A stretch of DNA of 64,000 nt from Candidatus Berkelbacteria bacterium (GTDB lineage: Bacteria; Patescibacteriota; UBA1384; XYA2-FULL-43-10; 1-14-0-10-43-13), in contig JAPLVL010000001.1 of NCBI GenBank assembly GCA_026397135.1, positions 12,753 through 76,752 of the forward strand, given 5' to 3'. The translations under genes and the position numbers were made by a program. The notes beneath the pieces are model-generated. The model was given only the letters and a program-made list of their open reading frames with translations, was not told the origin of the DNA and searched no databases. Each line of letters begins with the position of its first letter. The stretch's first letter is position 1. This document shows positions 50,093-62,676 of the stretch, piece by piece.

Positions 50093-52912
50093 TTATTTTC
50101 CACAGCATTTCTTGTATTTCTTGCCGCTTCCACATGGACAAGGATCATTGCGGCCCGGTTTGGCCACGTGTTTCACCTGTGAAGCAGGGCCAGTCGCCGC
50201 CGATTCTTTCATCCGATCGAAGACAGTCTTCTTTTGCGACAACATTACGCTTTCGCTATCAGCCCTGTTTGTATTAGATTCAGCCATCATCTTCTGTGCC
50301 ATTGCTAAATCTTCTTTTTCTTTGTCAAATCCGCCAACTTTATCAACCACTGGTTCAGAATAAAGAAGAGGTTTTGATTCTTCAGAAACTGGCTTCGGTG
50401 CCTGATTGTTTATCTTTATTTCAATTTTGAAGATTGTGCGGGCAACCATAGCTTCAATATTCTGTAAAAGCGCCTCAAAAAGTCGGTACGCTTCCTGTTT
50501 GTACTCAACCAATGGATCACGCTGACCGTAACCCTGCAAGCCAATTCCGGTACGCAATTCATCCATCGTTGTCAGGTGTTCAATCCAGAGCATATCGATT
50601 GTCCGAAGATAAACCATCTTTTCAACCTCTCTGGTGACATTTGATCCGTACTTTTGCTCTCGATCATCATAAATTTTTCTTACAAATTGTTTCAATTCGA
50701 CAATATCAAGTGAAGGCAGGATAATCTCGCCGAAAATCGCTTTGAGTTCCATTCTCAATTTATCCTGATCTTCGATATAGAGATTGCAGATTTTTTCAAT
50801 TTCCTCTTCCAATATCTCCAAAATCTCATCCTTCAGCGAAAACTCTTCTTCCTCACTCCTGACTTCTGACTCCTGACTTCTGGCTTCTGAGTCTTGGCTT
50901 CTGGCTTCTGAGTCCTGACTTCTGACTTCCGACTTCCCGTCCTCCTCTTGTCGAATGGATTTGCTTTCAGATTCTAATACTCGACGGCGTTTTCGGTAAA
51001 TAACCTCACGGTGCTTATTCATCACATCATCATACTCAACCAGATGTTTGCGGATATCAAAATTGTATCCTTCAACCCTCTTCTGTGCCGATTCAATCGA
51101 GTTGGAGATCATCCGATTTTCAATCGGCATCTCATCGGGCAGACCCAGAGAGTTCATAATATTCTTTAGCCGATCACCACCAAAAATCCGCATCAAATCG
51201 TCATCCATCGAAACAAAAAACTGAGATGAGCCGGCGTCACCTTGGCGACCAGAACGACCGCGCAACTGATTATCAATACGACGCGCTTCGTGTCGCTCAG
51301 TTCCAAGCACATGCAGACCACCCAATTCCCGCACCCCTTCACCAAGTTTAATATCAGTACCACGACCAGCCATATTAGTCGCTACCGTGACAGCACCAAC
51401 CAAACCGGCCTTGGAGATTATTTTTGCTTCGCGTTCATGATTCTTCGCGTTCAATACCTCATGTTTTATCCCAGCTCTCTTCAGAGCTTTTGACAGAATT
51501 TCATTCTTGGACACAGAAACAGTACCAATCAAAATCGGTTGGCCCTTGTCGTGGCGTATTCGAACATCTTCGGTAATAGCAGTAATTTTCGCTTCCTCAG
51601 TTTTGTAGATCCGATCGGGAACATCAAGCCGAGCAACCGGTTTGTTTGTTGGAATTTCAACAACATCAAGCTTATAAATTTTGAAAAATTCCTCCGCTTC
51701 GGTCGCGGCAGTACCGGTCATACCTGACAATTTCTTATACATCCGGAAAAGATTTTGGAACGAAATCGTGGCCAAGGTTTGTGACTCATTTTTGACTTCA
51801 ACATTTTCCTTCGCCTCAATCGCTTGGTGCAGACCTTCAGAATACCGGCGGCCAACCATCAACCGTCCTGTAAACTCATCTACAATCATTATTTCGCCGT
51901 CCTGGACTACATAATCTCGATCTTTCTGGAAAAGAGCATGCGCCTTAAGTGCCTGTTCTAGATGGTGAACCATCGTAATACCACCAACTTCGTAAATATT
52001 GTCGATATGGAGCATTTTCTCCATCTCGTGAATTCCTTTATCGGTCAGTGTGACAGTCTTTTCCTTCTCGTCAATAACATAATCATCTGTTTCAGTAAGC
52101 CGAGGAACCAAGGCGGCAAATTGTTGATACATCCCGCCCGATTCTTCAGCCGGAGCTGAAATAATAAGCGGCGTCCTGGCTTCGTCAATCAATATCGAGT
52201 CCACCTCATCAACAATTGCAAAATATAGCTCCCGCTGGACGCAAAGTTCTAGATTTGGCGCCATATTATCGCGCAAATAGTCGAACCCAAATTCGTTGTT
52301 TGTACCATAAGTAATGTCAGCATGATATGCATCGCGCCGACTACATGGTTCCAGGTTCAATCCCTCACACTCCGAATAGTGTTTGTAATCATGGCTTTTT
52401 TTGAAACGATAAGTCTCTTGATTGCTCTGAATGATACCAGTCGAAAGTCCCAAAAAGTCAAAAACTTGTCCCATTCCCTCGCCCTGATGTTTCGAGAGAT
52501 AATCATTTACCGTTACCAAGTGAGCGCCGCGACCGGCTAATGAATTTAAATATAGAGGGAGTGTCGCTACGATTGTCTTACCTTCACCAGTTTTCATCTC
52601 GGCGATTTTGCCTTGGTGAAGCACGAGGCCACCAATTATTTGTACGTCAAAATGGCGCTCTCCCCAGACACGCTTCATCGCTTCTCGCAATACAGCAAAG
52701 GCCTCAGGCGCGATCTGCTCAAGTATCTCGTCTTCGGAAATCTCTGATTCTCTGTCTTTGATTCGATTCCGAAACTCAGTCGTCTTCTGTTTCAACTCCT
52801 CGCCAGAGAGATTACTGACCTCCTTTTCGAAATCACTGATTTCCCTAACCTGACGCTCCAAAGCGCCAATCACTCTTTTGCTCGGATTGTAAAATTTATC
52901 AATTAAACCCAT
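50093..52912 (-). CDS. secA: Preprotein translocase ATPase SecA, with an in-frame heptad-repeat insertion
   Basis: DEAD-like motor motifs and C-terminal zinc finger CPCGSGKKYKKCCG. Likely start MGLIDKFYNPS (~52912; track ORF extends to 52978). Insertion EVRSQDSEARSQDSEARSQESEVRSEEEE. Confidence 0.9.
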   Translation of the reverse strand: MGLIDKFYNPSKRVIGALERQVREISDFEKEVSNLSGEELKQKTTEFRNRIKDRESEISEDEILEQIAPEAFAVLREAMKRVWGERHFDVQIIGGLVLHQGKIAEMKTGEGKTIVATLPLYLNSLAGRGAHLVTVNDYLSKHQGEGMGQVFDFLGLSTGIIQSNQETYRFKKSHDYKHYSECEGLNLEPCSRRDAYHADITYGTNNEFGFDYLRDNMAPNLELCVQRELYFAIVDEVDSILIDEARTPLIISAPAEESGGMYQQFAALVPRLTETDDYVIDEKEKTVTLTDKGIHEMEKMLHIDNIYEVGGITMVHHLEQALKAHALFQKDRDYVVQDGEIMIVDEFTGRLMVGRRYSEGLHQAIEAKENVEVKNESQTLATISFQNLFRMYKKLSGMTGTAATEAEEFFKIYKLDVVEIPTNKPVARLDVPDRIYKTEEAKITAITEDVRIRHDKGQPILIGTVSVSKNEILSKALKRAGIKHEVLNAKNHEREAKIISKAGLVGAVTVATNMAGRGTDIKLGEGVRELGGLHVLGTERHEARRIDNQLRGRSGRQGDAGSSQFFVSMDDDLMRIFGGDRLKNIMNSLGLPDEMPIENRMISNSIESAQKRVEGYNFDIRKHLVEYDDVMNKHREVIYRKRRRVLESESKSIRQEEDGKSEVRSQDSEARSQDSEARSQESEVRSEEEEFSLKDEILEILEEEIEKICNLYIEDQDKLRMELKAIFGEIILPSLDIVELKQFVRKIYDDREQKYGSNVTREVEKMVYLRTIDMLWIEHLTTMDELRTGIGLQGYGQRDPLVEYKQEAYRLFEALLQNIEAMVARTIFKIEIKINNQAPKPVSEESKPLLYSEPVVDKVGGFDKEKEDLAMAQKMMAESNTNRADSESVMLSQKKTVFDRMKESAATGPASQVKHVAKPGRNDPCPCGSGKKYKKCCGK
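50845..50935. repeat. 7-nt-periodic tandem repeat inside the secA coding sequence (ctgacttctgactcctgacttctggcttctgagtc…)
   Basis: Read directly: ~13 heptamer units, in frame (21 nt = 7 aa). Same heptamer family as the intercistronic repeats, e.g. ctgactcctgactcctga at 23640. Confidence 0.6.
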
Positions 52913-53033
52913 TTTTTCCTTTATTTGACCGCATAGGTGCGGCATATAAATATCGATACACAACAATGGCACTAGCAAAGTACCAAATCTATTTTAGTCT
53001 AATTTACAGCTTTTGCAAGAGCACAATGTACTC

Positions 53034-53568: not shown

Positions 53569-53997
53569 TCATGTCAAGGCAGTACCTCCGGTTTTATGCA
53601 TTTCCTCCGGCTTGGCGCCCAATTTTGTCGCTTCCGAAGCTATTGCCTCTTCTGCCTTCATTGTCGCTTCCGAAGCCGGCCCGGGATTTGCTTCATTCCT
53701 CAATGTTCTGACATCTCCAAGCGACTTCAACCTCTTCGCTTTTGATTCAGCTGTCCGTATCGCAGCCTCGCGGCTTAGCTCATTAACTTCGACCGGATGA
53801 TCAGTTTCGTTTGTCTTTTTCAGCTCTTGATACCGTGTCCAAAGCTGTCCGACTTTGGCAACATGGTCTCTTGCCTGCTCAGTCAAGGCCACAGCTCTGT
53901 CTCGTGGTGTTTCTGGTGCTGCAACCGCCTCGCTTGATTTCTCTCTATTTGCCTCGTCAATTTCAAGCCCATTGCCACCGAGTTCCAATATTGCCAT
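53569..53997 (-). CDS. Hypothetical charged helical protein (GC-richer than its surroundings)
   Basis: 142 aa, Ala/Glu-rich. Confidence 0.4.
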   Translation of the reverse strand: MAILELGGNGLEIDEANREKSSEAVAAPETPRDRAVALTEQARDHVAKVGQLWTRYQELKKTNETDHPVEVNELSREAAIRTAESKAKRLKSLGDVRTLRNEANPGPASEATMKAEEAIASEATKLGAKPEEMHKTGGTALT

Positions 53998-54109
53998 TTA
54001 CCCTCCTCCAAAACTGCTTAATTCACTTTGCATACTACACCACAGAATATGAACTACCTCAACGATTATCAAACTAAAGTTTGAGCTACGAGTGTTTGGT
54101 ATAAGTTGC

Positions 54110-55168
54110 TTAATATTCGATCGGTCTGACCTGGGCTTTGACTGTAAAATATTTAATCATGGCCGCGACCGATACCTCTGGCCTGAAATCATTATTTTGA
54201 ATTTCTTTGCCGACACCCTCTGGCGTCTGTTTTGATCGCAAGCGAATCAGACTGGCGCCAAATGGGTTTTCTTGACCATCTGGTTCAGTTGCTCTAGCTT
54301 TGTTTATCATTTCAAGCGAGAAATTTTTGTCCTGATCGTTAACTTCCCCAAATGTCGAAGTTCCTGTCACCTTCTGATAATATTCAAGCTTGCCAAGTAA
54401 TCCTTTCGCCATCTTGTCGCGATCATATTTATACCCAGCTTCAAGTGTACGAAAAGCTGGCATCATTGTCAGAATCATTTTCTCTTCGTCAGTCCGCATA
54501 TTTTCCGGTTTTTGTTTAATTTCAACCTCACGGCGATTTGCGTCCAAAAACCAATTTTGCAAATCTTTGACCTTGGCTTCGAACTGATTCATCGCGCTCT
54601 CAATTTGCTGTTTCTGTTCCTCAACCTGGCTTAGCATTTTCCTACCCTTCTCTTCATCATCGACGACTCGGTCTGCATCCGGCGAAACCATACCGATTGG
54701 ATTTTCCCGTATCGCTGAATTCGGGGCTTTTTCAATTTCCTTGTTTGGACCCATTTCTACGACTTGCCCTGCCCAAGCAGCCTTGATCTGCTCCTCGTTC
54801 GCCCCCAAACGCACCGCATCTTTGATAATTATTTCGCGAACTTTGTTGATCGACTCTAGAGCCTCCGGTCCCGCCTGAGGCTCCAGTTGAGCTAATGTTG
54901 AAATCGCCTCGAGTCGTTGTCCGATCGATTCTCTGTTTCTCTCTGCCAATGTGCTTTCATAAATAGTCGCCTCGGCCGGATTTTCAGTCGCCGAGAGGTC
55001 AACTGCTTTGTCGAGCTTCTGTTCTAACTGTGTCAAGTTTCCGAACCCAGCATTTGCCTTTTCGGCCAAACCGTCAACATGTTGCGAAGGATCATCTGGT
55101 TTTCTGACATCATTTTCGATCCTCTGGCCATTGTCCGGACGATACTTTTCGATATCCATATCACTCAT
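54110..55168 (-). CDS. Hypothetical acidic protein
   Basis: 352 aa. 4-nt overlap with the 69-aa gene upstream. Confidence 0.45.
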   Translation of the reverse strand: MSDMDIEKYRPDNGQRIENDVRKPDDPSQHVDGLAEKANAGFGNLTQLEQKLDKAVDLSATENPAEATIYESTLAERNRESIGQRLEAISTLAQLEPQAGPEALESINKVREIIIKDAVRLGANEEQIKAAWAGQVVEMGPNKEIEKAPNSAIRENPIGMVSPDADRVVDDEEKGRKMLSQVEEQKQQIESAMNQFEAKVKDLQNWFLDANRREVEIKQKPENMRTDEEKMILTMMPAFRTLEAGYKYDRDKMAKGLLGKLEYYQKVTGTSTFGEVNDQDKNFSLEMINKARATEPDGQENPFGASLIRLRSKQTPEGVGKEIQNNDFRPEVSVAAMIKYFTVKAQVRPIEY

Positions 55169-55548: not shown

Positions 55549-56763
55549 TTAGGAAATGCGAGATTTCCTCGCCTGCCAGCACCAAAGTAGCCATACCGCC
55601 AAGATCAGAATTATACCAGACCAGAGCCAAGAAGTTCCGATCGAGAAGGTGTCCGCCAACCAACCGCTGACGATTAGGCCAATCACAGCTGCCAAGTGAC
55701 CCGAGGTTGAGCTGCAAGAATCAATCGTTGCCCGATCACGGCTTGGAATATCCTTGTGTAAATAGTCCAAGCGAATCGGGTCATGTGCTCCACGAAAAAT
55801 TTCGTGAGAGTAGAAGAAGAGCAGGGACGTGCCCAAGATTGGCACGAAACCAGAAAGCACGATGAAAACGCCAGTACCAAGCAAACAGAGCAGAAGTGCT
55901 CCGCGCTCTGACTTCATTTTCAAAACCAGATAACTGGCCAAACCACTCCCCACGAGAACCGAGATCTTGATCGCGGCTGAAATCCAGCCGAGATAAACAA
56001 GGTTTCCATGTAAAAGCCATTTGTAAAACGGCATCGATTGCATGTTGATACCCTGGACTGCGAATGAGAGTGCCGCTCCGGCCAAGATAAGAAAGAAAAC
56101 TTTCTCATCTTTGACCGAATAAACAACGCTCCGCTTCATAGTCGCGATACCTTCACTAATCTTCTTGCGCCAATCGAACGAATGTTGCTTGGGCCGATAA
56201 TCCTCTTTCATGAAGGAAAAGGCAAAAGCAAAATTGATCGCGGCAGCAACCCCGGAAAAAATCCAGGGGAAAGAATCGTTCAGAGTAGCGGCGTACGCCC
56301 CAATCACGGTTGCCAGCATTCCGGCGATGAGCCCGGCTTGATTTGCCATCGCGAAGATTTTCAAAAATCTGTCGTCATCATCGCGAAACCCATGATGAAT
56401 CATGCTGTCCTTGAACCAGGCAGTAAAAGCCCCGTTCTCACATGTTCGGCCCAGTGCCGCAATTACCTCTGCAAGAGCGAACCCGCCAAATGTAGTCGAT
56501 ACGGCATAGACAAAAGGATCGACCACACGGAAGAAGCAGGCCAAGAGGTATGAATTGCGACGTCCGAAAACATCAGCAAAGATACCCGTCGGGATCTCAA
56601 AAACAAATTGGGTAGCGAAGAAGATCGAGTTGATCAACCCGCAATCCAAATAGTTTTGCCCGTGGGCAAGCAGAAACAGAACATAGGTAGCGTTGATAAA
56701 ATTCATCGAAAAACGAAGAATTACCAACATGGTGACGTAGAGGATAGTTAACCGTGTACTCAC
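55549..56763 (-). CDS. MFS-family transporter
   Basis: 404 aa, 12 predicted TM helices. GRR-type loop motif FGRRNSYLLA between TM2 and TM3. Confidence 0.75.
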   Translation of the reverse strand: MSTRLTILYVTMLVILRFSMNFINATYVLFLLAHGQNYLDCGLINSIFFATQFVFEIPTGIFADVFGRRNSYLLACFFRVVDPFVYAVSTTFGGFALAEVIAALGRTCENGAFTAWFKDSMIHHGFRDDDDRFLKIFAMANQAGLIAGMLATVIGAYAATLNDSFPWIFSGVAAAINFAFAFSFMKEDYRPKQHSFDWRKKISEGIATMKRSVVYSVKDEKVFFLILAGAALSFAVQGINMQSMPFYKWLLHGNLVYLGWISAAIKISVLVGSGLASYLVLKMKSERGALLLCLLGTGVFIVLSGFVPILGTSLLFFYSHEIFRGAHDPIRLDYLHKDIPSRDRATIDSCSSTSGHLAAVIGLIVSGWLADTFSIGTSWLWSGIILILAVWLLWCWQARKSRIS

Positions 56764-57054
56764 AGTTCACCCCTTTTTAATGTGCTGGAAATGAATTTGC
56801 CGCTATTTCCAAAAAGCGTCCTGAAATATTCAGGACGCTTTCTTCAATATTGTAGAGAAATTAATTCTAGTTATTTATATTCAAAAAAATGTCCTGATTG
56901 TCTATCGCAAAATTGGCCGGATTGTAGTTAGTGCCGGTCTGGCGAGAAAGCATTTCAATTTTGTGACAAACGATAATCATTTTTTCGAATTATATTTCTC
57001 TTGGTTTCCCAAGTTATTGATTAATACTATAAATTATTGGGTATTCTTTGTCAA
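56764..57054 (-). promoter_or_regulatory. Leader upstream of the MFS gene (minus strand): sigma70-like promoter - ~200-nt untranslated leader - intrinsic terminator/attenuator; candidate riboswitch or sRNA
   Basis: Minus strand: TTGACA (~57054-57049) - 17 nt - TATAGT (~57031-57026). Terminator: AAGCGUCCUGAA AUA UUCAGGACGCUU + UUUUGG at ~56840-56808. Then RBS AAAAAGGGGTGA and GTG start at 56763. Upstream CAAUCAGGACAUUUUU can pair with the terminator's 5' arm (anti-terminator). Confidence 0.5.
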
Positions 57055-57096: not shown

Positions 57097-57528
57097 TTGC
57101 TATTACTCTTCAATAATGATGGAAGGGGAAGATTTTATTATGAAAGGAGAATTATGGCCGAAGGCACAAGCGCATCACCAGAAGAAGAAAAGGCAGCCCA
57201 ACAAGACCTGATTGATGAACACATGGGTGATTCCAAATTTGTTGATTTTCTGACAGGTGCTGAGAAAGGTTCACTCGATCTAACTTCGCTCAAGGATGAG
57301 AGAATTCTGAAGTTTATCGAGGTTTACGACCAGATTGAGAGTACTTCTGACCAAATCACCGAGATCTTGCAGAATCGATTGTTCGAAGGTTTGAACCTAA
57401 ATGAAGTCAGCAACGATGCCAAGAAACAAATCAAAGAGTTTTTGCTCGAAAAGGCGAAGGAAGCCTGCCCTCTGTCGGCAAATATATCAAGAAGATTCGA
57501 GAATATCAGGAAACGACAGTTGAAATAG
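57097..57528 (+). CDS. Hypothetical acidic protein
   Basis: 143 aa. May be the N-terminal part of a longer gene; see findings. Confidence 0.4.
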   Translation: MLLLFNNDGRGRFYYERRIMAEGTSASPEEEKAAQQDLIDEHMGDSKFVDFLTGAEKGSLDLTSLKDERILKFIEVYDQIESTSDQITEILQNRLFEGLNLNEVSNDAKKQIKEFLLEKAKEACPLSANISRRFENIRKRQLK

Positions 57529-57740
57529 CCAAGAAAGAACATGAAATTGCTCAATTTGGCGACAAAGCAGCCCTAAATCAAGTCCGGACCGAAACTGCTC
57601 TAAATTTAGGCCAAGCTCAAGCCGAGCAAGCTGCCTTTACAGCCGAACAACTCCACAACAACTCCAATATTTGGAACAATCTAAAAAGGCTTGGCAATGT
57701 TTTCACCGGGAAAGGCTATCATTCCCAAACTGATTTCGAG

Positions 57741-58376
57741 TTGGAATCTCGCATCGGTGAATCGAATTTGGCTGCCCGCCTCCCGGAATTGACCCAAAAA
57801 CTAGCAGAAATTGATGGCAAATTAGTCAACTTAACTAATGCCGAAGTCGAAAAAGCCTCGCTTGAGACAACAATTCAGAAATTGGAAAACGGGCTACTCA
57901 AGGATGCCGACATGCTGAAAGATGTGAAAGAGTGCATGCTCAAAGCTGCCAAAGACAGACTAGAAAAGTCAGTTGGCAAGCTCGCTTCACAGGGCAGTAA
58001 ATACGGTGGCGAAGACCAAATTGGATTGGGTGAATATGCCAAATTGCAGGCCGATTATTCTCTCTGGTCTGGCAGCAAATATTTCGGCGAAATTTCGACC
58101 GATCCTGAAGCCAAAGCTCTATCTGACGAACTGATCAATGTTCTAAATACAGCTATTACCAACGAAGTCAAAGCTGTTGACCCAAGCAATGTTGGCCGTA
58201 GCATCGACAAAACCTGGCAGACAATCGAAAGTGCCTTGCCAAAAGACGAGGCCAAGAGCAAGGAAGCACTGAAATTGATCCGCTCAACCCTGACCGATCG
58301 ACTGAACACCGAGACTGATCGACCGAAACAGCTATTCCTAAATCGCGTCCTGGCCAAAATAAAAAATAACTATTAG
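57741..58376 (+). CDS. Hypothetical helical protein; its frame is open well upstream of the annotated TTG start
   Basis: 211 aa. By my reading the same frame stays open for ~70 codons upstream with no ATG/GTG/TTG (…IAQFGDKAALNQVRTETALNLGQAQAEQAAFTAEQLHNN…). Confidence 0.4.
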   Translation: MESRIGESNLAARLPELTQKLAEIDGKLVNLTNAEVEKASLETTIQKLENGLLKDADMLKDVKECMLKAAKDRLEKSVGKLASQGSKYGGEDQIGLGEYAKLQADYSLWSGSKYFGEISTDPEAKALSDELINVLNTAITNEVKAVDPSNVGRSIDKTWQTIESALPKDEAKSKEALKLIRSTLTDRLNTETDRPKQLFLNRVLAKIKNNY

Positions 58377-58389
58377 ACAAGGATTCAAG

Positions 58390-58683
58390 ATGAAAGATTT
58401 AGATAAGGATCTCCTAAAATCACTTTTCGAAGATGAAAAATACGGTGAAGCCCGTCAAGTTCTCGATCAATATTTGGCTCAGGATTTGAGCGATGCAGAG
58501 AAGGGAGAGGCATATGTCGAAGCAGTAATGGAATACATGACAATGGCCAACGAAATTAATACTCGCTACCTCTCCTCACTCCAAGAGATTGTTGCTTCTC
58601 TGAAAGAATTAGAGGAAAAGAAAGAAGAATACATCAAAAAAATCGATGTCTCTGGGCTGAAAAGCAAAATCGATCAACTCTAG
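58390..58683 (+). CDS. Hypothetical acidic helical protein
   Basis: 97 aa, 13-nt gap after the previous gene. Confidence 0.4.
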   Translation: MKDLDKDLLKSLFEDEKYGEARQVLDQYLAQDLSDAEKGEAYVEAVMEYMTMANEINTRYLSSLQEIVASLKELEEKKEEYIKKIDVSGLKSKIDQL

Positions 58684-60332: not shown

Positions 60333-60632
60333 CTATCCAATAATTTCCTGATACAAATCCAGAAAATTGGGATTATCCTTGGTTATTAAATCGATTTTCT
60401 TCTGCCTTGACCCTGCTTTAATTTGTTTTTCTCGATTGATAGCAGAATTTGAATCGCTATATAATTCGTAATAAACTAGCTTCGTTACATTATATCTTCC
60501 GGTGAAACTTTCGACAACCTTGTTTTTATGTTCGTAAACTCTACGGATAATGTTATTTGTTACTCCAGTATAAATTACCGTATTGGTATGATTTGTCATC
60601 AGATAAACATAGTAATATTGTTCCAATTTCAT
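60333..60632 (-). CDS. GIY-YIG (URI-domain) nuclease superfamily protein, second copy
   Basis: 99 aa. YYYVYLMTNHTNTVIYTGVTNNIIRRVYEHKN, paralogous to the 6940..7167 protein (YIITNYKNNVFYIGVTNNLTRRIYEHKN). Confidence 0.7.
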   Translation of the reverse strand: MKLEQYYYVYLMTNHTNTVIYTGVTNNIIRRVYEHKNKVVESFTGRYNVTKLVYYELYSDSNSAINREKQIKAGSRQKKIDLITKDNPNFLDLYQEIIG

Positions 60633-61067
60633 TTATAAGATTGCCACGGCCTGCGGCCTCGCAATGACAGAAAAGGTAATTTCCTGCATTCTTTCATACC
60701 CAACCTTTGCAAGCCAAAGTTTGATCGGCTCGGCTTTCTTGCTCGGGACTAATTGAACCAGTCTTAGAATCGTCTCAACATCCGCCACATCGGTTTTATA
60801 AAATTTGCCATCAGCAGACATCATTTTCAGTTTGTCACAATTTGTGACTAACTGACTTCCTTCCTTTTTCAGACGATTCTTTAATGTTGTCCAATAGCTC
60901 TGGGCCTTCTTGAAATCCAGCTGTTCAGTCAACGCCGCGACGATATCAATCACCGAAAAATACCACGCCTCTTTTTTCTCATCATAGAGCCTGCGGATCT
61001 TAAAATTCTCAAATATTGCTAAACTGTTTTGATCTTGTTCCATATTTCTATTCAATGTTTTTCCCAT
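60633..61067 (-). CDS. Bro-N domain (phage antirepressor-like DNA-binding) protein
   Basis: 144 aa. FENFKIRRLYDEKKEAWYFSVIDIVAALT matches the Bro-N core (F..IR…g..WF.a.DVa.aL). Its stop abuts the GIY-YIG start. Confidence 0.6.
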   Translation of the reverse strand: MGKTLNRNMEQDQNSLAIFENFKIRRLYDEKKEAWYFSVIDIVAALTEQLDFKKAQSYWTTLKNRLKKEGSQLVTNCDKLKMMSADGKFYKTDVADVETILRLVQLVPSKKAEPIKLWLAKVGYERMQEITFSVIARPQAVAIL

Positions 61068-61282: not shown

Positions 61283-62676
61283 CTATTTCTCCGGTTTCAT
61301 CAGTGGGAACATTTGGGCTTCACGGGCGGGAAGATCGACTAAAAATGAAAATAATCTTTCGGAGAAACCAAAGCCGGAAGTTGGGGGCATACCATATTCG
61401 AGCGCCTCGACGAACTCCTGATCATGCATCTGTGCCTCCGCATCTCCTGCTTCACGCAGTTTTGCCTGCTCCTTGAATCGATCGGCCTGGTCGATCGGAT
61501 CATTTAGCTCCGAGTAGCCATTGCCCATCTCGGAACCAGCCAAAATGACCTGGAATCGTTCGACGACACGTGGATCATCTGCTTTTCGCTTGGCTAGTGG
61601 GGAAACTTCAACCGGATGATTGATCAGAAAGACTGGCCCCGCAATCTTCTTGCGCAGAACTTTCCAGATCGCATCGATCAAGCGACCACGGCGATCAGCC
61701 GGGCTGAATTTAACATTTAATTCTCTCAGCTTAGACTTCAAATCTTCCTCTGAAGCTTCGAGCACATCTATATCGAAATGTTCTTTGATCGTCTTGGTAT
61801 AGTCAATTTTCTCCCAGTCTTTTTCCAAATCGACATCATGCTCACCTATTTTGAATTTCAAAGTCCCGAAGGTCTCCTTGGTAATATATTTATACATTTC
61901 CTCGACCAATTTCATCGAGTCCTCATAATTGGCATATGCCCAATAGAATTCCATTTGGGAATAATCTTGAAGATGCTCTCTCGAGACTCCCTCGTTTCGA
62001 AACTGTCGACCGATCTCAAAGGTTTTTTCAAACCCGCCGACCATCAAACGTTTCTGCCAGAGTTCTCCCATCGAAATACGGAGAAAAACATCAATATCGA
62101 AGGCGTTGTGATGAGTAATGAAGGGATTAGCGTCAGCACCGCCAGCACAATTTTCTAGTACCGGTGTCTCAACTTCCAAGAAACCTTTTTCGGTCAAGAA
62201 ATTACGAGTTGACTGCCAAAATTTGGCCTTTTTGTAAACCATTTCTCGGGCAACGGCCTGGTAGCTTTGGCTAGCAATTTAACGCCATGGCCTTCGATCG
62301 AAAGCTCGCCGGCATTAGTTACGAAAATAGTACCGGAAATTTGCAAAAAGTCACCAACTTCGATGAGAGTCGCAATTTCAAAATTTTTCTCATCCAGAAG
62401 GTCGGCCCGCAAAACAGCTTGCAGTTTCCCTGATTCATCGACAATATCTAGGAAGAAAAGTTTGCCATGTCCGCGCTTGGCGATAATCCGCCCCGCAATT
62501 GTAATTTCTTTTTTCGATTCGACAAGCTCATCCTGCTGTCCTCTCACTTCGGCAAGAAGAGTGTCCCGCTCTGACTTCGAAGGATAAGCAGAAACACCGA
62601 GGTTTTCCAAAAGATGCAGTTTTGCAATTCTGTTTTCGATTAGTTCTTTTTCGGTCGCGCCGAGCTCTTGTGACAT
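61283..62676 (-). CDS. lysS: Lysyl-tRNA synthetase (class II), interrupted by a frameshift near an A5 run at ~62215-62235
   Basis: ORF 62194..62676 is the N-terminal anticodon-binding OB domain (…LPEKW). ORF 61283..62242 is the catalytic domain (…RNFLTEKGFLEVETP…, motifs 1-3). They overlap by 49 nt in different frames, around acaaaaagg. Confidence 0.8.

Follow-up and report, generated by a model that had tools for sequence, protein, structure and literature searches.

The closest described relatives of the element reported here are leaders in which ribosome position selects between alternative RNA folds. In the amino-acid attenuators of E. coli (trpL, hisL, leuL, thrL, pheL and ilvL), a short leader open reading frame (ORF) is followed by an intrinsic terminator, and the RNA can form three overlapping helices, termed 1:2, 2:3 and 3:4; the position of the ribosome is expected to decide among them. 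In E. coli trp, the 1:2 and 2:3 helices are nearly isoenergetic and the outcome is kinetic. In mef(E)/mel, erm(K) and bmrCD, an efflux gene, of the major facilitator superfamily (MFS) type or other, has a leader peptide and a Rho-independent terminator ahead of it, and a stalled ribosome selects the anti-attenuator fold (PMC4335068; PMC4191407). Leaders of the mef(E)/mel type have a Shine-Dalgarno sequence and encode a peptide of 8-14 codons with MTASMRLR as conserved stall motif, and the drug that induces them is known (PMC4335068). Mycobacterial leaderless polycysteine small ORFs (sORFs) are 5'-end ribosome-based sensors of one amino acid for downstream genes (10.1101/834739). Here, we analyzed a leader that lies upstream of an MFS transporter gene on the minus strand of a 64,000-nucleotide (nt) stretch, hereafter the window, of a Candidatus Berkelbacteria genome (candidate phyla radiation [CPR], or Patescibacteria). 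From comparison with homologous loci, we conclude that it most likely represents a new, undescribed family within a known mechanism, ribosome-dependent transcription attenuation, and that this family is real and conserved across Patescibacteria.

Using a profile of the MFS protein, we retrieved 160 loci from metagenomes and GTDB genomes, nearly all of them Patescibacteria by record title and including Paceibacterota/Parcubacteria, metagenome-assembled genomes labelled Saccharibacteria, Magasanikiibacteriota, Falkowbacteria, Wolfebacteria, Komeilibacteria and others. Exact-protein look-ups gave no record of the window MFS protein, and just 21 nt of sequence lay upstream of the closest homologue (P0002). 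Of the distant homologues with usable DNA upstream, the first three each carried a 36–43-codon ORF and, ~100 nt ahead of the MFS start, a hairpin resembling a terminator. The same layout runs through the collection and is shared by ~90 unique loci from Patescibacteria: in the large majority of loci, a 33–51-codon ATG ORF (upstream ORF, or uORF) lies between about -240 and -105, counted from the MFS start, and a terminator hairpin with a U-run is present in ~105 of 116 unique loci. Typically, 20-35 nt separate the uORF stop from the terminator start and 40-75 nt separate the terminator end from the MFS start. The window fits this layout, with a 37-codon uORF, 28 nt from stop to terminator, 52 nt from terminator to MFS start, and a homologous MFS protein (30-44% identity). 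Throughout the family, the element precedes the same MFS gene at a distance of 40-75 nt and shares its strand, and it is a vertically conserved core feature of many Patescibacteria, not a mobile resistance cassette. The parts of the window copy are as follows, in order of transcription; L083 is the sole close relative of the window.

57049..57054, minus strand: -35 hexamer TTGACA, also TTGACA in L083
57026..57031, minus strand: -10 hexamer TATAGT after a 17-nt spacer; the L083 equivalent is TATAAT
57000..57013, minus strand: hairpin CUUGG-GAAA-CCAAG in the 5' untranslated region (5' UTR), seen in sequence and fold
56989..56994, minus strand: TATAAT ending 8 nt before the uORF ATG, the usual site of the family's -10 box
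56867..56980, minus strand: uORF of 37 codons plus stop, MIIVCHKIEMLSRQTGTNYNPANFAIDNQDIFLNINN, with an ATG start, no Shine-Dalgarno sequence and an A-rich upstream context
56956..56990, minus strand: segment 1, 5' strand of a long imperfect hairpin in the minimum-free-energy fold, spanning the uORF start codon and codons 1-8
56917..56937, minus strand: apical stem CCGG...CCGG inside the uORF, from the fold; the L083 equivalent is GACCA/UGGUC
56879..56915, minus strand: segment 2, 3' strand of the hairpin, with the anti-terminator core AUCAGGACA at 56898-56890, from fold, duplex and family covariation
56829..56841, minus strand: segment 3, terminator 5' arm AAAGCGUCCUGAA, from sequence and fold, starting 28 nt past the uORF stop by the family measure
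56811..56825, minus strand: segment 4, terminator 3' arm UUCAGGACGCUUU, with the arm at 56825-56813 and its last bases opening the U-run that reaches 56811
56768..56775, minus strand: Shine-Dalgarno-like AAGGGGUG of the MFS gene, aligning with AAGGAGAGG of L083
55549..56763, minus strand: regulated MFS transporter gene, 404 amino acids (aa), GTG start, Pfam MFS_1 E = 1.9e-20

Comparison across the family reveals two helices that compete for the same strand. Segment 2, the 3' third of the uORF, is complementary to segment 3, which comprises the terminator 5' arm and the first loop bases. By RNAduplex, the 2:3 pairing has a median energy of -16.3 kcal/mol, compared with -15.6 for the terminator, and reaches z < -2 against shuffles in 77% of loci. 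The RNAalifold consensus structure on an alignment of 73 sequences (A2) is the 2:3 helix, with compensatory changes at 12/12 pairs. Cells of this helix are paired in 90.7% of cases, against 73.8% in shuffles (none of 500 reaches the observed value) and 29–49% in slid controls; double-change cells number 175 versus 37 in shuffles, and one key pair divides into 35 CG and 31 UA sequences. The terminator helix 3:4 covaries as well, being 78% paired with 67 double changes against 25.6 in shuffles (0/500). Since the 2:3 pairing reaches the loop bases, the sequence of the terminator loop is also conserved.

In the window itself, UCAGGAC (56897-56891) can pair with GUCCUGA of the terminator 5' arm at -12.2 kcal/mol. 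Relative to the window, L083 carries linked changes in segments 2, 3 and 4, from CAGGAC/GUCCUG/CAGGAC to CGGAAC/GUCCCG/CGGGAC. Taken alone, the window pairing is not above chance (z = -1.6), and its significance comes from the family comparison and from these compensatory changes. An initial annotation, made from the window sequence alone, had proposed terminator/anti-terminator attenuation of the transporter and had named the upstream segment that pairs with the terminator 5' arm. The complementarity exists but does not exceed chance within the window. The comparison of homologous MFS leaders finds a conserved structure in which 2:3 and 3:4 covary, supporting both that pairing and the core idea. 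We thus read the leader as a putative promoter-to-terminator switch on the MFS gene, operating through mutually exclusive terminator and anti-terminator helices.

The second conserved feature is the uORF. Among 93 loci picked by the terminator and the 2:3 duplex alone, blind to ORFs, 90 contain an ATG ORF whose start is 60 nt or more ahead of segment 2 and whose frame stays open across that segment before closing upstream of the terminator, against 11% of dinucleotide shuffles. The initial annotation had seen no credible ORF in the leader, which was wrong: a 37-codon ATG ORF fills it, and these 90 homologous loci keep an equivalent. Its peptide shows a different pattern. Codon-position variability is flat within three subfamilies (for example, 0.47, 0.44 and 0.50), and a conserved RNA motif, YAGYCR, is read in three frames (42:6:2), giving FSRD, YLTKAM/FYSVAM or RIQSA-stop. 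The uORFs of the window and L083 align gap-free over 35 codons, with 11/14/11 differences by codon position, 5 synonymous and 20 non-synonymous. Therefore, the conserved things are the RNA and the open, ATG-initiated frame, and the uORF would be a leader ORF whose translation matters, not its product. On the same grounds, and with no Pfam or NCBIfam match to the peptide, a functional small protein or exported peptide was rejected. The parts of the leader, their geometry, the uORF kept as an open frame and the covariation of 2:3 and 3:4 are all direct observations.

Translation of most family uORFs should begin at the very 5' end of the transcript. Shine-Dalgarno-like sequences precede 5 of 90 uORFs, versus 48 of 90 MFS genes, and in 67 of 90 loci (null 21%), a -10-like hexamer ends 4–11 nt from the uORF ATG, with 6–9 nt the commonest distance. 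Many of these hexamers belong to a full TTGACA-17-(TGn)TAnnnT promoter. With the -10 box so near the ATG, transcription should start on or beside the AUG, and most family uORFs should hence be leaderless. The window and L083 are exceptions, with a consensus promoter 39–50 nt upstream of the uORF and a 5'-UTR hairpin.

In the window, TTGACA-17-TATAGT matches 11 of 12 promoter positions and is the top promoter-like site within 4 kb. Its predicted transcription start lies near 57019, which would give a 5' UTR of ~39 nt. In the 5' UTR of L083 (2221-2235), a hairpin of other sequence, GUAAC-GCACA-GUUAC, occupies the equivalent position, whereas most family members, being leaderless, have none; in Berkelbacteria-type leaders, this hairpin could be a 5'-end stabiliser or a timing device. 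The TATAAT at 56989..56994 has no good -35 and may be a relic of the family-type promoter. The whole leader folds at -64.4 kcal/mol (z = -4.8 against shuffles). The terminator has a 13-bp stem, a UAU loop and a U-run to 56811, and its end lies 47 nt from the MFS GTG at 56763, or 52 nt by the family measure. Most of the parts named in the initial annotation are in place: the near-consensus minus-strand promoter is borne out, L083 retaining TTGACA-17-TATAAT, the GNRA-capped hairpin sits at 57013-57000, and the perfect terminator, described with 12-bp arms ~45 nt ahead of the MFS gene, has 12–13 bp and lies 47 nt from the GTG. The second stem also exists, but its letters had been given for the plus strand; in the RNA it is (GA)CCGG...CCGG(CC), pairing 56937-56934 with 56920-56917.

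We consider it fairly probable that the element is a ribosome-dependent (leader-peptide) transcription attenuator. The conserved uORF, its usual start at the transcription start, the lack of an Rfam match, and the lack of a conserved helix register or junction upstream of the switch all point to ribosome-mediated attenuation. From these features, we infer that the uORF is translated and that ribosome position chooses the fold. The TTGACA-17-TATAGT promoter would produce a leader transcript carrying the 37-codon uORF, in which segment 2 (core UCAGGAC) could pair either with segment 1 or with segment 3 (GUCCUGA), the 2:3 helix blocking the terminator hairpin 3:4. A ribosome that slows or stalls within the initial two thirds of the uORF would cover segment 1 and free segment 2, and the resulting 2:3 helix would permit read-through and synthesis of the MFS protein. 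A ribosome reaching the stop codon would rest in the ~45-nt stretch that separates segment 2 from segment 3 and block 2:3, leading to the terminator. When the uORF is not translated, 1:2 would form first, again leading to the terminator, and terminated transcription would end ~50 nt before the MFS start. Of these ~45 nt, a 70S ribosome at the stop would take up ~30, which should sterically bar the pairing of segments 2 and 3, with the terminator left free. Such parking would explain the constant spacing from stop to terminator.

Several observations weigh against this mechanism or against its application to the window. Segment 1 pairs with segment 2 in individual folds, with mostly negative RNAduplex z, but the 1:2 pairing has no one conserved register: subfamilies differ, and two incompatible registers are 58.6% and 47.6% paired. 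A single family-wide 1:2 helix was rejected, as neither register holds across the family. Equilibrium folds cut before the 3' arm form 2:3 in 82% of loci without any ribosome mask, and a mask at the stop codon lowers this only to 66% of loci, so that no clean switch is reproduced. Given this weak effect of masking, kinetic and steric arguments must carry the outcomes predicted for an untranslated and for a fully translated uORF; the trp helices of E. coli, also close in energy, offer a precedent for a kinetic outcome. A nearly invariant GG in the mid-uORF (A2 columns ~106-112; window ~56930-56915) is left unexplained. It forms a Gly codon, GGN, with all four wobble bases used and U-rich codons next to it, is the sole conserved feature of the middle region, and could be a pause signal or a peptide feature. 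A conserved mid-uORF hairpin, as pause element or P2, was tried and set aside, the candidate helix being weak (53.5% paired) in a middle region that varies in length and sequence. The window copy is itself not leaderless, has no Shine-Dalgarno sequence, and carries its AUG inside helix 1:2; its Asn codons, which bear on the candidate signal below, are at positions 18, 20 and 23, in the loop and not in segment 1.

The window is also a distant match to the family model. A covariance model spanning segment 2 through the terminator (R1), built from 71 relatives with the window and L083 left out, gives hits where expected in 26 held-out loci, the lowest E being 3e-15. With default filters, R1 gave no match in the window; with filters off, it scores the window only 14.4 bits (56830-56897, minus strand; E = 0.025 in 801 nt), in the correct register, and L083 scores 15.1 bits. 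The two Berkelbacteria copies are best described, on these comparisons, as divergent relatives that have gene context, uORF, spacing and switch logic in common with the family and little primary sequence.

Regarding the signal, we examined codon content in the stall zone, defined as the part of the uORF in which stalling would release segment 2. Asn accounts for 12.1% of the in-frame codons of this zone; the out-of-frame values are 2.7% and 3.8%, and neighbouring proteins have 4.2% (p ~1e-13). The Asn codons are concentrated at codons 2–18, with at least one in 88 of 90 loci. The excess persists without the codons of the conserved GAAUA motif, and also among 16 representatives at <=60% identity (9.8% versus 3.3% and 3.3%; p = 0.004 and 0.009). 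Among codons of the NAY type, in-frame enrichment holds for Asn alone and not for His, Tyr or Asp, and a queuosine-codon explanation was therefore discarded. Slow decoding of Asn codons, reflecting Asn-tRNA supply, is our best candidate for the signal, which we advance tentatively. Still more speculative is the full picture that these data allow: the first native cis-regulatory element family described for Patescibacteria, in which a mostly leaderless, Asn-rich leader ORF senses charging of tRNA(Asn) and switches on a conserved MFS gene via the covarying anti-terminator and terminator, the MFS protein being an importer of asparagine or a related compound that is central to nutrient scavenging by epibionts with reduced genomes. 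In a limited literature search aimed at one, no asparagine-specific attenuator turned up.

Compared with the E. coli amino-acid attenuators, the element shares the order of leader ORF and intrinsic terminator, the overlapping helices, with 1:2 seen in individual folds, the expected choice of fold by ribosome position, and, in the family though not in the window copy, the over-representation of one amino acid's codons (here Asn) in and around segment 1. However, its uORF is longer (33-51 codons) and holds both segments 1 and 2, with the stop codon after segment 2 rather than between segments 1 and 2, and the Asn codons are scattered (longest run usually 1-2) instead of clustering tightly. Most of the uORFs appear leaderless, one MFS transporter gene rather than a biosynthetic operon is under control, the host is a member of Patescibacteria, and there is no sequence or Rfam relationship. 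With mef(E)/mel-type leaders it has in common a leader ORF and a terminator ahead of an MFS gene and an alternative fold that a stalled ribosome would select; unlike them, it has neither a Shine-Dalgarno sequence nor a conserved peptide, and it is chromosomal and lineage-wide. With the mycobacterial polycysteine sORFs it has in common that most family members appear leaderless, the window copy with its ~39-nt leader being different; those sORFs act on translation by unmasking a ribosome-binding site and use consecutive Cys codons, whereas here there is an intrinsic terminator, Asn and no Cys tract. By sequence, stall motif, codon type or output, the element thus belongs to none of the trp/his-type, mef(E)/mel-type or polycysteine sORF systems, and a full-text literature search found no paper describing a CPR or Patescibacteria leader, riboswitch or attenuator of this kind.

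Attenuation by a ribosome could also serve drug sensing, with a ribosome-targeting antibiotic stalling the ribosome early in the uORF to favor the anti-terminator, and with the MFS protein acting as a drug/H+ efflux pump. Leader-peptide transcription attenuation of MFS efflux genes is documented (PMC4335068; PMC4191407), mef(E)/mel, erm(K) and bmrCD would be the models, and an unconserved peptide fits the sensing of a general slowing of translation. The nearest NCBIfam models to the window MFS protein are those of Tet(40), TetA(P), DHA3 (TIGR00900) and Tap, but scores fall far under their cut-offs (53.7 bits versus 800 for Tet(40)). These matches suggest family-level resemblance only, and scores so far below cut-off do not assign a substrate. 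The protein is 100% identical to an NCBI Candidatus Berkelbacteria protein but otherwise has few close homologues, the next best being 44% identical, and a PDB sequence search with it matched no solved relative. Furthermore, neither the window peptide nor those of the family contain a known stall motif such as MRLR or IFVI, and the scarcity of Shine-Dalgarno sequences before the uORF (none in the window) and the vertical conservation of the element described above also weigh against drug sensing. Since drug sensing also leaves the frame-specific Asn enrichment unexplained, we regard it as unlikely, though it fares best among the alternatives to Asn-tRNA sensing by a leader-peptide attenuator.

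A metabolite OFF riboswitch would make the uORF region an aptamer with 1:2 as its P1 helix, which a ligand would stabilise, withholding segment 2 and turning the transporter off. The design is standard for transcriptional OFF riboswitches, in which the 3' strand of P1 is common to the anti-terminator and lies upstream of an intrinsic terminator before a transporter gene, a typical target of such control; the close energies of 1:2 and 2:3 and the good fold of the leader would also suit it. In contrast to known OFF riboswitches, the element has no conserved aptamer core, no fixed P1 register, subfamilies differing in theirs, and no conserved junction in a middle region that is variable in length and sequence, and a conserved ORF frame spans the whole would-be aptamer. 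Rfam 15 at the gathering threshold gave no matches in the 64-kb window, and 20 relatives gave only tRNA and rRNA. A search of the leader region at E <= 10 returned only terminator-driven, sub-threshold small RNAs (sRNAs), SR1 with 20.9 of 45 bits and ncr1575 with 23.3 of 60 bits. An ATG at the transcription start, the open frame in 97% of loci and the in-frame Asn enrichment would all be unaccounted for. We thus hold a riboswitch to be quite improbable, and the ligand- or protein-controlled sensor proposed in the initial annotation finds no support, given the missing Rfam match, the upstream helix without fixed register or junction, and the conserved uORF found in its place.

An independent small gene or trans-acting sRNA, with read-through into the MFS gene incidental or the gene served by another promoter, is very improbable: it would account for a discrete ~200-nt RNA and for the sub-threshold SR1 and ncr1575 matches, and attenuator-derived RNAs or peptides can act in trans (PMC6614838; PMC7298713), but the peptide is without purifying selection and differs in C-terminal frame among members, the element keeps its strand and distance to the same MFS gene, the promoter scan of the window found no promoter-like site between terminator and MFS start, and a plain terminator would have no use for a covarying 2:3 helix. 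An SR1-like dual-function sRNA was likewise rejected, its score being below threshold and its peptide unrelated. An sRNA may nevertheless arise as a by-product of the leader-peptide attenuator that we favor.

The leader sits in a divergent intergenic region, opposite a plus-strand gene with a strong Shine-Dalgarno sequence that begins at 57154. Flanking the MFS locus on both sides (53569-55168, minus strand; 57154-58683, plus strand) are ORFs of 142/352/124/211/97 aa that are charged, coiled-coil-like and without a Pfam match. In one relative (L047, 1-1214), the leader-MFS unit lies directly downstream of a 23S-5S rRNA operon. Elsewhere in the window, the SecA gene (50093-52978, minus strand) carries a low-complexity acidic repeat insert, SEVRSQDSEARSQDSEARSQESEVRSEEEE. 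A lysyl-tRNA synthetase-like gene (61283-62676, minus strand) is apparently split, its N-terminal part being encoded by an ORF of 160 aa (62194-62676) and its catalytic part by an overlapping ORF of 319 aa (61283-62242); a frameshift, pseudogene formation or an assembly error could be the cause. A 99-aa ORF (GIY-YIG-like by eye only) and a neighbouring 144-aa ORF (60333-61067, minus strand), which lie between the genes for seryl- and lysyl-tRNA synthetase, may be a small mobile or homing-type insertion.

To our knowledge, almost nothing is known about gene regulation in Patescibacteria. The element described here is a well-defined, widely conserved switch whose start codon, Asn codons and segments 2, 3 and 4 can each be tested. 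For annotation, it is a recurrent small ORF plus terminator that gene callers skip or label as a hypothetical protein. According to a 2024 overview, an inducible expression system for Patescibacteria is still to be developed (PMC11665869), and the element could become a native inducible promoter-leader cassette. It also offers a handle on the substrate of one of the most conserved Patescibacteria transporters. If our interpretation is true, coupled transcription-translation attenuation operates in the Patescibacteria superphylum.

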